Shown: positions 22,339-47,373, numbered from the stretch's first letter. The stretch: 64,000 nt of DNA from an uncultured Chloroflexia bacterium (GCA_963810095.1 CAWEMM010000009.1:416001-480000), one strand, 5' to 3'. Notes: generated from the letters alone by a model not told the origin. Translations and numbers: made by a program.

Positions 22339-22426
22339 CAAACGTGTTTTGGGTGATTGACAAACGTGAGCAGTGGTGCTAATCTGTGCATGCAAATAGT
22401 GAATAGCATGATTCACAAACGTGAAT
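22339..22426 (+). promoter_or_regulatory. Sigma70-type promoter with repeated operator-like motif
   Basis: TTGACA (22357), 17 bp spacer, TAATCT (22380) with TGn extension; CAAACGTG at 22339, 22361 and 22416; palindrome ATTCAC-AAAC-GTGAAT at 22411-22426. Confidence 0.7.
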
Positions 22427-22468
22427 GACCTCTTCCATTCATCGGCGTCTCACGGAGATTACACCACT

Positions 22469-24581
22469 ATGGATATTGCCACCGCAGAGATGACGCAGGA
22501 CGCGGCCCACCGCGACGGCGGGCCACGAGAATCGAACCTTTCCCGCGAGCGTCTCCTGGAGCTGTTCTACAAGATGACCCTCACGCGTGCCTTCGAAGAG
22601 GCCGCGTGGAGCCAGTACGGCCTCGGTAAGGTACACGGGACGATGCACCTGTGCATCGGCCAGGAGGCTGTAGGCATTGGAGCCATTGCCGCGATCCGGC
22701 CCGACGACTACATCGTTTCCACCCACCGCGGCCATGCCCACGCCATCGGCAAGGGGCAAGACGTGCGCGAGATGATGGCCGAGCTGCTGGGCAAAGAGAA
22801 CGGCGTCTGCCACGGCCGGGGCGGCTCGATGCACATGGCCGACGTGAACCTGGGCAGCCTGGGCGCGAACGGCGTGGTGGGCGGGGGCTTGCCGCTGTCG
22901 GTCGGTGCGGGCCTTGCACTCAAGCTGAAGCACCCGACGGGTGATTCGCCGGTGGTGATCTGCTTCTTCGGCGACGGCGCCTCAAACGAGGGCGCGTTCC
23001 ACGAGTCGATCAACATGGCTTCCGTGTGGAAGCTCCCCGTGATCTACCTCTGCGAAAACAACCAGTACGGCATGTCGAACTCGGTCAAGAACGCCATGAG
23101 CGCCCGCCAGATGATCGACCGGGCCCCGGGCTACGGCATTCCCGGCAAGCAGGTTGACGGGATGGACGTGCTGGCGGTCTACGAGGCGATCAGCGAAGCG
23201 GCCGAGTACGTGCGAGCGGGCAACGGCCCCATCCTGATCGACGCGCTCACTTACCGCTACCTGGGGCACTCGAAGAGCGACCGGCAGCTTTATCGGACGA
23301 AGGACGAGGTCGAGGCCTGGAAGCAGCGCGATGCGATCGCCGCCTTCGAGCGTTACTTGCTGAGCGCCGGCGTTGCCTCACAGGACGAACTGGACGCCCT
23401 CAAGACGAAGGCGGACGCGGCCATCGAAGAAGCCATCGCGTACGGCGACGCCGGGCCCGAGCCGCAGGTGGCCCACCTCATGCGCGACGTATACGCCGAA
23501 GACCCGGCCGTACTGGCACAGCCGGAGCGGGTCTTGCCCAAGTGGGCGTCCGCGACATTCGGAACCGCGACCCGCATCAACCCGCCCGCAGGCGAGCGGG
23601 TGATCACCTACTCGGAGGCGCTGCGCGAGGCGATGGCCCAGGCGCTGTCCTCTGACCCGAAGGTATTCATGCTGGGCGAGGATATCGGCGTGTACGGCGG
23701 TGCATTCGGCGTCACAAAGGACCTGGTGGAGGAGTTCGGCCGCGACCGCGTGCGCGACACGCCGATCTCGGAAAACGCGATCATCGGGGCTGCCACCGGC
23801 GCGGCGGTGCTGGGCATGCGGCCGATCGCCGAAATGCAGTTCCAGGACTTCATCACGCTGGGTATGGAGCAGACGGTGCTCCAGGCCGCCAAGATTCGCT
23901 ACATGTTCGGCGGCAAGGCGACCGTGCCGATGGTCGTGCGGATGCCGGCCGGCTCGGGCACGGGCGCGGCTGCGCAACACTCGGAGAGCCTCGAATCCTG
24001 GTTCCTGAGCGTGCCGGGCATCAAGGTGGTGGCGCCTGCGAGCGCGTACGATGCCAAGGGGCTGCTGCTGGCCGCGCTGGCCGACGACAACCCGGTGATG
24101 TTCGTCGAGAACAAGCTGCTGTACAAGAGTAAGGGCGCAGTGCCCGTCGAGCCCTACATCGTGCCGCTGGGCAAGGCCGCGGTGCGCCGCCAGGGCCAGC
24201 ACGTGAGCATTGCGGCGACGTCGATCATGGTGCACCGGGCGCTCGAAGCGGCCAAGCAGCTGGAAGCCGAGGGCGATCGAGCTCGAGGTCATCGACCTGC
24301 GCACGCTGAAGCCGCTCGACAACGAGACGATCATCGCCTCGGTCAAGAAGACCGGGCGCCTGCTGGTGGTGCACGAGGCGCCGCTGTTCGGCGGCTTTGG
24401 CGGCGAAATTGCGGCCATGATTGCCCAAAGCGAGGCCTTCGCGTACCTGGAAGCGCCCATCGTGCGCCTCGGCGGCGAAGACGTGCCGATCCCGTACAAC
24501 CCGAAGCTGGAAAAGGCCGCCGTACCGCAGGTCGATAACATCGTCGCCGCCGCACGCAAGCTCGCCCGGACCGAGATCTAG
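22469..24581 (+). CDS. Fused ThDP-dependent dehydrogenase E1 alpha+beta, acetoin dehydrogenase (AcoAB)-like (+1 frameshift near 24275)
   Basis: [42 protein letters not shown]; beta part [15 protein letters not shown]-terminus [14 protein letters not shown] lies in the next frame. Confidence 0.9.
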
Positions 24582-24585
24582 AATG

Positions 24586-24671
24586 GGACGCAGATTGAAC
24601 TGATTCACTGATCTTCCTGATTTTATCAGCGAGGTCATGCGAATCGACTCAGTCAGTTAGATCAGGCGTCC
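24586..24671. repeat. 9-bp-periodic hairpin element, GGACGCAGAT family
   Basis: GGACGCAGATTGAACTGATTCACTGATCTTCCTGAT...AGTCAGTTAGATCAGGCGTCC. Confidence 0.7.
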
Positions 24672-24686
24672 TATTAGGGGTACGAA

Positions 24687-45100: not shown

Positions 45101-46390
45101 CCTCCCCGTACACGCGCCGCGCATCTATATCGGCGACGATGCAGTGGGGGCGCTGATCGACTACGCGCGCGAGCAGGAGCTGCGCCTGACCCTCGTGGCC
45201 GACGCAAACACCTATCAGGCGCTCGCGCGTCGGGTGGAGGAACAGGCAGCCGCGCTGGGGCTGGACGTAATCACGGTTGTGGCCAAAGGGCCGGAACCCA
45301 TCGTGTCGGACGAGCGCCGGCTGGTCCAGGTCCTGATCGATGCGGGCGCCTCTGAGCGCGCGTACGTGGCGGTCGGATCTGGAACGGTGACGGACATCAC
45401 CCGGTTCGCGAGCTTTCATGCGCGCAACCGCTTCATATCTATGCCGACCGCGGCGTCGATGGACGGCTACGCGACGAGCAATAACACTCTGAGCGTGGCC
45501 GGGCTCAAGATCAGTGTGCCGCGGCCACCCGCCCGAGGCAATCTTCTGCGACTTGCCCACGCTTGGGGCCGCGCCCAGGGCAATGAACGCGGCCGGGCTG
45601 GGCGACACCCTCGCCAAGTTCACCTCCGTTAACGATCTGCGGCTCGGGCACTTGGTGTGGGGCGAGCGGGCGGACACCTGGGAGCGGGACGCGCCCATCG
45701 CGGACCGGATGGAGCGGCTGGCCCAGACGGCGATCGGACGGGCCGGCGAGATTGCAGCCACAGAGCCCGAGCCGCGCCGGTCCGGCGTTGCGTTCCTGAT
45801 CCGTGCCCTGATCGATTCCGGCCTCGCAATGGCGGACTTTGGGAACTCGATGCCGGGCGCGGGCGCAGAGCACCATATCTCGCACTGTTGGGAGATGCGT
45901 GCGCTTTCGCGTGGCGAGCATGCCGGCTCCGGCCCCCTGCTCCTGCACGGCGCGAAGGTCGGTGTCGGCACGGTGATGGCCGCGGGCTGGTACGCGGCGA
46001 TCCGCGAGATGACGCAGCGCGAGGCGGCCAACCGCCTGGCCGAGCGCGCGTTGGCCCAGCGCCGAGTCGGAGATCGAGGCGATTGAGCGGGCCTACGGGC
46101 CGCTGGCCGAGGGCATCATCGCGACGCAGCAGCCGTTCCTGCAGGTAACCGGGGACCAGTGGTCCGCGCTCAAGTGGCGGATCGTCGAGCACTGGGACGA
46201 GATCCGGGCGCTGGCGGCGCGCATTCCCCCGCCCGGCACGCTGGCAGATGCGATGCGCGCCGCGGGTGGGCCGGGGTCGCCTGAGGAGCTCGGGCTGAGC
46301 GCCGCAGAGATCGAGATCGGCGCGCGGTACGGGCATTTCACTCGGCCGCGCTTCACCATCGCACGGTTGCGCCTGTTGCTCGGGATTTAG
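45093..46390 (+). CDS. sn-glycerol-1-phosphate dehydrogenase (AraM/EgsA-like; +1 frameshifts near 45520 and 46055)
   Basis: VGSGTVTDITR, PTAASMDGYA, AGLGDTLAK, GAEHHISHCWEM, LHGAKVGVGT, RPRFT. Confidence 0.87.
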
Positions 46391-46397
46391 CTCATTT

Positions 46398-46452
46398 CGT
46401 TACATGGGGCGCGTGGCGGCGCCAACGGCGCCGCCACGCGCCCCATGTAACG
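46398..46452. repeat. Perfect 26-bp-stem hairpin
   Basis: CGTTACATGGGGCGCGTGGCGGCGCC-AAC-GGCGCCGCCACGCGCCCCATGTAACG. Confidence 0.8.
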
Positions 46453-46485
46453 GCAGGTGCGTTCTCACCTAGAAAGGCCTCAATT

Positions 46486-47373
46486 ATGTCCCTTCGCATG
46501 GAAATCGAGCCTCTCGCCCACCTGGAGCTGGAACTTGGCGAGAGCCCCCGCTGGGATGCGGCGGAGCAAGCCCTCTACTGGCTCGAAATCTGGAACCCTC
46601 CGTCGATCTTCCGCATGGACCTCGCGACACGCGCCATCACGCGCTGGTCACCCGGTGTCCACGTCACCGGCCAGGCACGCCGCGAGGGCGGCGGCTTTGT
46701 CCTCGCATCCCGGACCGGGCTCTACTTCTGGGACGAGCGCACGAACAAGCTCGAGTTCATCAATGACCCGGAGGCCGGCAACGCGCCCGTACGTTTCAAC
46801 GACGGTTCGGCCGACCGCCAGGGGCGCTTCTGGGCGGGCAGCACGTACGCCGACGACCAGTTTCGCCCCGACGGCTCGCTCTACCGGCTGAACCCCGACT
46901 GCGGCGTTACGAGGATGGCGGGGGGCCTTGCGTGCTCGAACGGCCTGGGGTGGAGCCCCGATAACAAGGTGATGTACGTGACCGCCCAGTTTGCGTACGA
47001 GCTGCTGGCCTTCGACTTTGACCCGGCGACCGGCGAACTCGCCAACCGCCGCAGCTTCGCAAAGGTGCCCGAGGCCGACGGTCTTCCCGACGGCCTGACC
47101 GTGGACAGCGAGGGGTGTGTGTGGAGCGCGCAGTGGGGCGGCTGGCGTCTCACGCGCTACGACCCGGACGGCAAGGTCGAACGCGTCGTCAAGCTGCCCG
47201 TGCCCAATCCGACGAGCTGCGTGTTCGGCGGGCCTGACCTCACGGACCTCTACGTCACCTCGGCGTGGCTGATGCTCAGCGAGGCCGAGCGCCAGGCGGC
47301 TCCCGGGTCAGGCGACCTCTTCGTCGTCCACACCGATATCAAGGGCTTGCCCGAGCCGAAGTTCGCCGGGTAA
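46486..47373 (+). CDS. SMP-30/gluconolactonase/LRE family sugar lactonase
   Basis: LGESPRW, RFNDG..GRFW, SNGLGWSPD, PDGLTVDSEG, PTSCVFGG. Confidence 0.93.
   Translation: MSLRMEIEPLAHLELELGESPRWDAAEQALYWLEIWNPPSIFRMDLATRAITRWSPGVHVTGQARREGGGFVLASRTGLYFWDERTNKLEFINDPEAGNAPVRFNDGSADRQGRFWAGSTYADDQFRPDGSLYRLNPDCGVTRMAGGLACSNGLGWSPDNKVMYVTAQFAYELLAFDFDPATGELANRRSFAKVPEADGLPDGLTVDSEGCVWSAQWGGWRLTRYDPDGKVERVVKLPVPNPTSCVFGGPDLTDLYVTSAWLMLSEAERQAAPGSGDLFVVHTDIKGLPEPKFAG

Follow-up and report, generated by a model that had tools for sequence, protein, structure and literature searches.

To our knowledge, every characterized catabolic bacterial microcompartment (BMC) channels an aldehyde through an acylating aldehyde dehydrogenase (AldDH). 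The locus described here has a full set of shell genes and no such enzyme. It lies on a 64-kb stretch of DNA (the window, G000:C9:416001-480000) from a metagenome-assembled genome of the Anaerolineae (Chloroflexota), G000, which comprises 6.13 Mb in 16 contigs (65% G+C, 88.5% complete, 4.8% contamination), and it joins the shell to a divergent paralog of ketopantoate hydroxymethyltransferase (PanB), here called PanB', and to a fusion enzyme of the family that comprises the decarboxylase of 3-keto-L-gulonate 6-phosphate (KGPDC) and 3-hexulose-6-phosphate synthase (HPS). The classical metabolosomes (PDU, EUT, GRM, and PVM) resemble it in shell architecture and in an operon with transporter and regulator, and its helix-tailed small protein sEP, with an EutQ-N-like motif, recalls their encapsulation peptides, but AldDH, phosphotransacylase (PTAC), the alcohol dehydrogenase core, and a lyase or aldolase signature enzyme are all missing from the window locus.

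Sugar phosphate utilization (SPU) types are defined, in the available text of Dwyer, Sutter, and Kerfeld (2024, PMC11585597), by deoxyribose-phosphate aldolase (DERA), a ribose-5-phosphate isomerase (RPI)-like partner, and AldDH. The window locus has none of the three. Like SPU6, however, it belongs to the Chloroflexi, its shell proteins are paralogs of those of SPU6, sugar phosphates are a common theme, and a sugar-phosphate regulator of the SorC/GntR type is present; it also coexists in G000 with a locus on contig C11 that fits this type. BMCs of unknown function (BUF), which lack AldDH, are also on record; as far as the available text of Sutter et al. (2021, PMC8217296) goes, the BMC-T(dp) proteins of BUF2 and BUF3 fall into a clade beside SPU6, BUF2 is confined to one phylum, and the main text proposes no function for either. 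The window locus likewise has no AldDH, and a BMC-T(dp) near SPU6 fits the 44% identity of its BMC-T to that of the SPU6-like locus, a likeness that concerns these two features and not a comparison of gene content. The locus type may hence already be catalogued as BUF2 or BUF3, without a function. UBA-series metagenome-assembled genomes (MAGs), e.g., the one behind the related locus L067, may by our guess have been in reach of that survey. Full-text literature searches did not find microcompartments joined in a useful link with PanB, ketopantoate hydroxymethyltransferase, pfam02548, or pfam00215, and none of the papers searched describes a naturally occurring BMC in which KGPDC, HPS, or formaldehyde takes part. 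Even if the existence of the locus is catalogued, the logic of its cargo, a branch of PanB specific to BMCs, the domain fused to the KGPDC/HPS-like enzyme, and a one-carbon (C1) link across phyla may be new relative to the published text.

A conserved shell locus without aldehyde dehydrogenase

Scans with Pfam and NCBIfam models revealed 23 co-oriented genes on the + strand between positions 22421 and 47373, close to the roughly 22 of the initial annotation, which was made from the sequence alone. Their order is fused E1 alpha-beta, E2, an OMPdecase-family protein (the KGPDC/HPS-like fusion), SnoaL, GldA, BMC-H, BMC-T, sEP, BMC-P, and BMC-H (genes 1 to 10), followed by a PanB-family protein, a short-chain dehydrogenase/reductase (SDR), a double Peripla_BP_4 binding protein, an ATP-binding cassette (ABC) ATPase, and two permeases (genes 11 to 16) and then by a 428-aa protein, an UlaE/SgbU-like protein, an FGGY kinase, a HAD-IIA phosphatase, a SorC regulator, Fe-ADH_2, and an SGL lactonase (genes 17 to 23). 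The conserved core, which is narrower than the gene set initially proposed, consists of the following genes:

26276-27361, + strand: KGPDC/HPS-family TIM barrel with an orphan class-V aminotransferase C-domain that carries a CPGCDSxxRxC insert (alignment, profile matches)
29154-29474, + strand: BMC-H shell protein 1 (PF00936, 91 bits)
29486-30118, + strand: BMC-T of the double-stacking tandem type (CcmP/CsoS1D/HO-5816-like), 210 aa (full-length match to HO-5816, CcmP, and CsoS1D)
30175-30531, + strand: sEP, a small protein, candidate scaffold or encapsulation protein (domain layout, weak EutQ and TIGR02536 matches)
30563-30865, + strand: BMC-P pentamer protein (PF03319)
30869-31186, + strand: BMC-H shell protein 2 (Pfam scan)
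31191-32039, + strand: PanB', divergent ketopantoate hydroxymethyltransferase paralog with altered active-site motifs (NCBIfam, motif alignment, tree)
32117-32867, + strand: SDR oxidoreductase with one frameshift near 32396-32398 (Pfam, relatives, contigs of public runs)
32976-35183, + strand: lipoprotein, encoded by a single ORF, with a tandem pair of Peripla_BP_4 sugar-binding domains, the copies of its 993-bp repeat being 98% identical (Pfam, repeat comparison)
35329-36892, + strand: sugar ABC ATPase with two ABC_tran domains, frame broken (Pfam)
36889-39063, + strand: two BPD_transp_2 permeases (36889-37923 and 38019-39063), the second frameshifted near 38793 (Pfam)
40553-41428, + strand: UlaE/SgbU-like TIM barrel of the L-ribulose-5-phosphate 3-epimerase family (NF009689, 285 bits vs a cut-off of 200)

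The shell set initially claimed, two BMC-H proteins, a CcmP-type BMC-T, and a BMC-P, is present in all its parts by Pfam, and the match of the BMC-T to HO-5816, CcmP, and CsoS1D runs from end to end. With PF00936 found twice besides the tandem BMC-T and PF03319 found once, it has what Sutter et al. (2021) demand of a BMC main locus. The absence of the metabolosome core was also borne out by Pfam and tblastn, the locus having no AldDH, PTAC, DERA, or RpiB of its own. No AldDH (pfam00171) is among the 23 genes, and two BMC AldDHs compared with the 64-kb window reached a best tblastn E value of 0.08; in ~600 kb of 42 related loci, a single weak generic match was found (L040). PduL (PF06130) has no match in the G000 genome (88.5% complete), and both DERA (PF01791) and the RPI-like family (PF02502) are absent from the window locus and present in the separate C11 locus. 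RuBisCO and carbonic anhydrase are not represented by any Pfam family among the 23 genes, which argues against a carboxysome. The window thus holds a true BMC locus that is complete in its shell genes and lacks both AldDH and PduL.

A BMC-T scan of species-representative genomes yielded 41 loci, 27 of which (L027-L052 and L067) share the arrangement of the window. The core order is kept in these 27 Chloroflexota-labelled genome loci and on four metagenome contigs (L089-L092), so that the shell genes stay with the core enzymes in relatives, as the proposal in the initial annotation requires. The OMPdecase gene lies upstream of BMC-H in 27/27, with a SnoaL-GldA pair between them in L029 and L031 as in the window, and PanB' follows the second BMC-H in 24/24 loci long enough to show it. 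After PanB' come the SDR, the binding protein, the ABC ATPase, and the pair of permeases, and then in eight loci an UlaE-like gene. E1, E2, GldA, SnoaL, the 428-aa protein, and the HAD, Fe-ADH_2, and lactonase genes are probably lineage-specific add-ons. The locus type is narrow in taxonomy, because 10 of 24 genomes from the family of G000 carry a window-type BMC-T (≥80% identity) and no further PanB' was found at an E value of ≤1e-90 in 400 evenly drawn Chloroflexota genomes.

The locus does not depend on a second BMC in every host. In G012, which is 97% complete in 10 contigs, all three PF00936 matches lie in the window-type locus, and the best match to the BMC-type AldDH of contig C11 is 27% identical; with a sole BMC locus and no BMC-type AldDH in that genome, the window type stands alone in at least one genome. 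It is thus an AldDH-free, autonomous BMC locus of an Anaerolineae lineage, and a conserved, self-sufficient locus of this kind shows the shell put to a different chemical use.

PanB', the fusion enzyme, and sEP

The examined genomes have three or four genes with PF02548 (G000 has four), and the BMC copy is the lowest-scoring of the full-length ones. PanB' is a full-length homolog of the solved PanB proteins 1oy0, 1m3u, and 3ez4, passes the NCBIfam cut-offs, and belongs to a family that uses methylene-tetrahydrofolate (methylene-THF), but it differs from them in three changed motifs, in being a third or fourth paralog per genome, and in being found only beside shell genes. The canonical motifs, present in the three solved structures and in eight housekeeping proteins of Anaerolineae, are GDS, xDxPF, KxEGG, and TPQS, whereas PanB' has SDA, TT(M/L)PF, HLEGT, and TKQK (SDA, TTMPF, and HLEGT in the window copy); the conserved Asp and Lys are replaced by Thr and His. 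In a maximum-likelihood tree, from which L030 (a frameshifted copy) and L048 (a 163-aa fragment) were left out, the 23 PanB' proteins of Anaerolineae group with that of the Bacillota locus L061 (SH-aLRT 97), the next sister is a PanB-like gene of the Bacillota genome G418 (98), and the two housekeeping PanB clades of Anaerolineae are placed elsewhere.

PanB' adjoins shell genes in every locus examined. Among the 80 metagenome PanB loci kept from a PanB' scan, 5/5 non-canonical genes adjoin shell genes and 0/75 with the canonical Asp do so, ~40 of the latter loci being shorter than 10 kb and ~35 at least 10 kb long. Further searches in 400 Bacillota genomes and in 14 genomes of the class of G418 returned only the G418 gene. 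Of the 150 cluster representatives that match the PanB' profile best, 139 have canonical residues at all motif positions scored, and three (P0242, P0244, and P0250) have an S[DE]A-type signature. The C-terminal helix of PanB', considered as an encapsulation peptide, was rejected, as this tail is also present in the housekeeping paralogs.

Two kinds of Bacillota locus share PanB'. The first, L088 (G418:C106:26000-43607, minus strand), has all its listed genes on one strand: histidine kinase, MtrH-family corrinoid:THF methyltransferase (above its cut-off and near MtgA), BMC-T, BMC-H, BMC-P, EutE/PduP-type AldDH (642 bits), tandem BMC-T, the PanB-like gene (motifs SDA, aCMPF, and vEIEGG), methylene-THF reductase (MTHFR), aldehyde:ferredoxin oxidoreductase (AFOR), BMC-T, BMC-H, corrinoid protein, URO-D-family methyltransferase, response regulator, a second URO-D-family methyltransferase, and RACo. 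It looks like a methyl-group-oxidizing compartment, judged by its genes, and the order BMC-T, PanB', MTHFR recurs on a short metagenome contig (L098). A BMC combining corrinoid protein, MTHFR, and AFOR was not found described in the papers searched; the one on T. phaeum deals with a BMC for ethanolamine. The second kind is L061, a Bacillota MAG contig of 6185 bp with LivF-type ABC ATPases, an sEP-like gene, a class-V aminotransferase with a CPGC insert, BMC-H, PanB', BMC-P, BMC-T, and a MaoC hydratase. Its aminotransferase is a full class-V enzyme with the CPGC motif of the C-domain of the Anaerolineae fusion, and it has three non-shell parts in common with the Anaerolineae type despite the different phylum.

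The fusion enzyme aligns over residues 1-218 with KGPDC UlaD of Escherichia coli (1kv8), its best PDB match, at ~40% identity. From the catalytic residues of KGPDC, which we take to be E33, D62, K64, D67, E112, H136, R139, T169, and R192, it keeps eight of nine; R139 is exchanged for W, as in all 26 Anaerolineae copies aligned. Its scores stay below the cut-offs for KGPDC (200.5 vs 250 for NF009832 and 194.8 vs 294 for NF009831) as well as for HPS (HxlA, TIGR03128, 169.5 bits vs 200). HPS of the ribulose monophosphate (RuMP) pathway has the same OMPDC-suprafamily fold, but the window enzyme comes without its partner 6-phospho-3-hexuloisomerase (PHI). HPS can also be used in reverse, with release of formaldehyde. 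The last ~140 residues of the fusion match the C-terminal domains of class-V aminotransferases in profile comparisons (2z9u, 5.6e-6; 6pk1, 8.8e-6; 2dr1, 8e-4), and within them the insert CPGC-S-x2-R-x-C is invariant among the copies and missing from solved class-V aminotransferases. The fusion enzyme is found in at least 120 protein clusters at 90% identity. Promiscuity between KGPDC and HPS is on record, according to the available text of PMC5980557.

sEP starts with a domain of ~45 aa that is weakly EutQ-N-like and TIGR02536-like (NCBIfam) and continues with a Pro/Ala-rich linker, the motif KPKGCQH (with invariant K-P-x-G-C), another linker, and, at the C-terminus, a conserved amphipathic helix, VVDxLIGxVKQL. 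A scaffold bearing an encapsulation peptide would be expected to be laid out in this way, which makes sEP a candidate for such a role. sEP and the CPGC domain co-occur in the Anaerolineae type and in the L061 type of the Bacillota, and both are missing from the G418 type.

Proposed chemistry within the shell

The reading that we tentatively put first, at somewhat less than an even chance, is a compartment confining formaldehyde or methylene-THF. An imported sugar, polyol, or sugar acid would be oxidized by the SDR and, where the FGGY kinase is present, phosphorylated, and the resulting 3-keto sugar phosphate would enter the shell. There the KGPDC/HPS-like enzyme would cleave off a C1 unit in an HPS-type retro-aldol reaction, giving formaldehyde and a pentulose 5-phosphate, which would be passed to the UlaE-like epimerase. 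PanB' would take up the C1 unit inside the shell, as methylene-THF or by hydroxymethyl transfer, and we propose that free formaldehyde would therefore never reach the cytoplasm. sEP might tether the cargo to the shell via its C-terminal amphipathic helix, possibly through the CPGC domain. The main new support for a formaldehyde-handling compartment is circumstantial; it stems from the non-canonical PanB, all finds of which were in BMC loci, one of them in a plainly THF-C1 setting with two aldehyde-oxidizing enzymes. HPS/KGPDC and PanB had initially been singled out as a pair of interest, which agrees with their position flanking the shell genes (PanB' in 24/24) and with a PanB' clade that was found only by shells, in support of a putative formaldehyde/methylene-THF role.

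Several points weigh against this reading. The THF link is based on a single locus from a genome, L088, and a single short contig from a metagenome, L098, and the Anaerolineae loci contain no PHI and no THF-dependent or formaldehyde-oxidizing enzyme. PanB' scores above both NCBIfam PanB cut-offs (296.9 vs 272 and 269.6 vs 207.55), the tree comes from a quick maximum-likelihood search, and the lack of shell genes at canonical metagenome PanB loci weighs little because so many of these loci are shorter than 10 kb. That the altered residues of PanB' are metal or substrate ligands is our assumption from the structures of the E. coli and Mycobacterium tuberculosis enzymes. Finally, three of the four positions that, in the work of Yew et al. 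from 2005, reportedly decide between KGPDC and HPS specificity (E112, R139, T169, and R192) are KGPDC-like in the fusion enzyme, so that a plain CO2-releasing decarboxylase remains likely.

A wider claim takes PanB' as the signature enzyme of an unrecognized BMC class that confines formaldehyde/methylene-THF chemistry. It would come in at least three designs: the sugar type of the Anaerolineae, which has the HPS/KGPDC-like enzyme, and two types of the Bacillota, one for amino acids, with a class-V aminotransferase, and one for methyl groups, in which a corrinoid methyltransferase system is joined by MTHFR, AldDH, and AFOR. The window type would perform a reverse-RuMP-like cleavage of a 3-keto sugar phosphate in the shell with trapping of the C1 unit on THF, and the orphan aminotransferase domain with its CPGC insert would form, together with sEP, a new system for docking cargo to the shell. 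That all of this holds jointly is rather unlikely in our estimate. If the formaldehyde/methylene-THF chemistry is true, the locus would provide the first example of a natural compartment that houses the most toxic C1 intermediate, with a bearing on the anaerobic degradation of sugars and methyl groups in sediments and on synthetic C1 assimilation, for which formaldehyde toxicity is a main obstacle. Whatever the mechanism, three parts lend themselves to tests: a subfamily of PanB whose active site has been rebuilt, a fusion of a KGPDC/HPS enzyme with an orphan domain, and the candidate scaffold protein sEP.

The strongest alternative, which we also hold to be unlikely, is an encapsulated sugar-acid pathway similar to Ula/Sgb that involves no formaldehyde. 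Its substrate would be a lactone or an aldonate of the type known from L-gulonate or from ascorbate breakdown. After oxidation to a 3-keto acid and phosphorylation, it would be decarboxylated by the KGPDC-like enzyme to L-xylulose 5-phosphate and CO2, and the UlaE-like enzyme would epimerize the product; PanB' would enolize or isomerize a 2-keto sugar acid or cleave a 4-hydroxy-2-oxo acid, and the shell would confine a reactive dicarbonyl or enediol intermediate. The likeness to the Ula and YiaK-S (Sgb) systems of E. coli is considerable: a KGPDC-like barrel 40% identical to UlaD with eight of the nine catalytic residues, KGPDC models that outscore the HPS model (200.5 and 194.8 vs 169.5 bits), an epimerase of the UlaE/SgbU family above its cut-off, and, in the window, an FGGY kinase and an SGL lactonase. 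However, those pathways are cytosolic and need no compartment, and the window enzyme departs from theirs by the exchange of R139 for W, the extra C-domain, and scores below all curated KGPDC cut-offs. UlaF/AraD-type epimerase, UlaG, and a phosphotransferase (PTS) or TRAP transporter are missing from the locus, the lactonase and the kinase lie outside the conserved core, and this reading does not account for a further BMC locus in which the PanB' clade is accompanied by MTHFR and a corrinoid:THF methyltransferase.

We consider it improbable that the window locus is an accessory shell-and-cargo module of the BMC on contig C11 and borrows the AldDH of the latter. The second BMC locus of G000 (C11:283172-293000; L001 9172-19000) begins with RpiB and DeoC, each with an N-terminal extension of ~125 residues, followed by BMC-T, BMC-H, a pyrophosphatase, a metallo-beta-lactamase-fold protein, BMC-P, AldDH, BMC-T, a nitroreductase, and a thiolase. 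It fits a separate SPU6-like locus, matching the description of SPU6 in the available text of Dwyer, Sutter, and Kerfeld (2024, PMC11585597), and one of its BMC-T proteins is the one 44% identical to that of the window. A satellite with a class II aldolase (with N-terminal extension) and two BMC-P genes is found at C9:536175-537661 (L003 8176-9661); such a satellite is described for type I HO BMCs, and cargo-bearing satellite modules in general, in the accessible text of Sutter et al. (2021, PMC8217296). The AldDH that the initial annotation advised looking for elsewhere in the genome thus exists, but in a separate SPU6-like locus. BMC-H and BMC-P genes of its own make the window locus a main locus by the catalog definition; moreover, G012 has this locus alone, with neither a second shell set nor a BMC-type AldDH.

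Genes outside the core, reading frames, and limits of the locus

The remaining genes of the block are as follows:

22421-24581, + strand: fused E1 alpha+beta thiamine diphosphate (ThDP) enzyme (E1_dh and Transket_pyr), accessory, frame broken near residue 620 (pyruvate dehydrogenase [PDH] E1 alpha/beta models nearest, below cut-off)
24687-26141, + strand: E2 acyltransferase with a lipoyl domain, two E3-binding domains, and the catalytic domain, accessory (Pfam, NCBIfam)
27466-27894, + strand: SnoaL-like protein, lineage-specific insertion (Pfam)
27957-29093, + strand: glycerol dehydrogenase (GldA-type Fe-ADH), lineage-specific insertion (subfamily cut-off passed, 394.6 vs 336)
39169-40455, + strand: conserved 428-aa protein outside the core (no Pfam, NCBIfam, or PDB match)
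41612-43152, + strand: FGGY sugar kinase, split over three frames here, with an uninterrupted copy in G005 (Pfam; 1-base difference at 42397)
43122-43970, + strand: HAD-IIA phosphatase (Pfam, NCBIfam)
44066-45100, + strand: SorC/DeoR-type sugar-phosphate-sensing regulator (Pfam)
45015-46390, + strand: Fe-ADH_2 (G1PDH/AraM-like), apparently in three frames (Pfam match for the first piece only)
46486-47373, + strand: SMP-30/gluconolactonase-family lactonase (SGL), last gene of the block (Pfam)

The initial annotation had made the ThDP E1/E2 the signature enzyme, cleaving within the shell a ketol, e.g., dihydroxyacetone made by GldA, to acyl-CoA and a small aldehyde. This is very doubtful by now. 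E1/E2 lie directly upstream of the core in the window and are adjacent in 9 of the 27 related loci, and since the genome holds at least six sets of E1/E2 paralogs, the window pair is a specialized copy, which speaks for the proposal. However, E1/E2 were found 6 kb away in one further locus and not at all in the available 1.9 to 8.5 kb upstream of 14 others, where a divergent SorC gene or a pilus ATPase, a two-component system, and proteases are located instead, the remaining three loci being uninformative; they are also missing from the metagenome loci L089 and L092. GldA, the proposed feeder, occurs together with SnoaL in only 3 of 28 loci (window, L029, and L031). No conserved N-terminal extension was seen on E1, its relatives aligning from residue 24-40 on, and the locus contains no E3. 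The C-terminus of E1 is garbled in the translation of the window. Elsewhere in the genome (G000:C6:1574907-1579131), a GldA-like gene 41% identical to that of the window adjoins another E1/E2 set, an arrangement that resembles an acetoin-dehydrogenase-type cluster.

At the family level, the names first given to the products hold for E1/E2, OMPdecase/HUMPS, SnoaL, GldA, PanB, SDR, the sugar ABC importer, UlaE, FGGY, HAD-IIA, SorC, Fe-ADH_2, and SGL. Three were too specific or misplaced: "AcoAB-like," as the nearest models are those of PDH E1, below cut-off; "LyxK-like," as the nearest model is XylB, also below cut-off; and "UroD-like" for the 428-aa protein, for which searches of Pfam, NCBIfam, and the PDB gave nothing and BLASTP showed no likeness to a URO-D protein. 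The latter has 717 homologs of 65 to 89% identity in records labelled Chloroflexi and Spirochaetes, often after permease genes and none with a Pfam domain, and represents a strongly conserved family of enzyme size.

At least eight frame breaks occur in the 25-kb block, affecting E1, SDR, the ABC ATPase, the second permease, FGGY (two), and Fe-ADH_2 (two). They are assembly errors, because the orthologs in G014, G005, and G012 are in a single frame (those in G001, an assembly of few contigs, are broken at other places), the essential rpoB and rpoC genes of G000 are also split over several frames, e.g., at C14:146935-155374, and contigs of four public freshwater-sediment runs have one base fewer exactly at 32396/32398 (SDR), 38793 (second permease), and 42397 (FGGY); the breaks in E1, the ABC ATPase, and the second one in FGGY were left unsettled by these contigs. 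Among the runs listed as containing this stretch, none is of RNA. That the number of breaks within 25 kb reflects a decaying locus, with real frameshifts and a compartment no longer made, is hardly credible in view of these three lines of evidence. Since single-base indel errors run through the whole assembly, gene calls in G000 need frameshift-aware handling. A GC3-overlap proxy for the frameshift rate (19 per 100 kb in G000 vs 3 to 23 in the loci of relatives) did not discriminate and was dropped.

The locus is delimited by two GNAT genes and a hairpin on the upstream side and by a convergent ABC-exporter pair (47444-51099) on the downstream side:

22240-22285, + strand: inverted repeat, a terminator-like hairpin closing the upstream GNAT gene and marking the 5' limit of the locus (read directly)
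22339-22423, + strand: promoter-like region with TTGACA at 22357-22362, a 17-nt spacer, and TAATCT at 22380-22385 (by eye)

The single strong promoter initially assigned to the operon was not confirmed: the site recognizable by eye has a perfect -35 hexamer and a weak -10 hexamer, and a consensus promoter scan reported no site of ≥9/12 at 22339. Three copies of CAAACGTG surround this site within 85 bp (22339, 22361, and 22416), and the 64-kb window holds no other copy. As an operator, the triplet was rejected, the motif not being conserved upstream of 19 related loci.

The ligand of the sugar-binding lipoprotein was left without inference, homology giving weak matches to ribose-binding protein. 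Its repeat was compared in eight genomes (window, L014, L020, L022, L028, L039, L042, and L046), and in 8/8 the two copies (~950 to 980 bp) are 89.5 to 99.8% identical, with orthologs ~70 to 88% identical at the protein level. Because the copies within a gene are more alike than the orthologs between genomes, the comparison suggests concerted evolution of the internal repeat.

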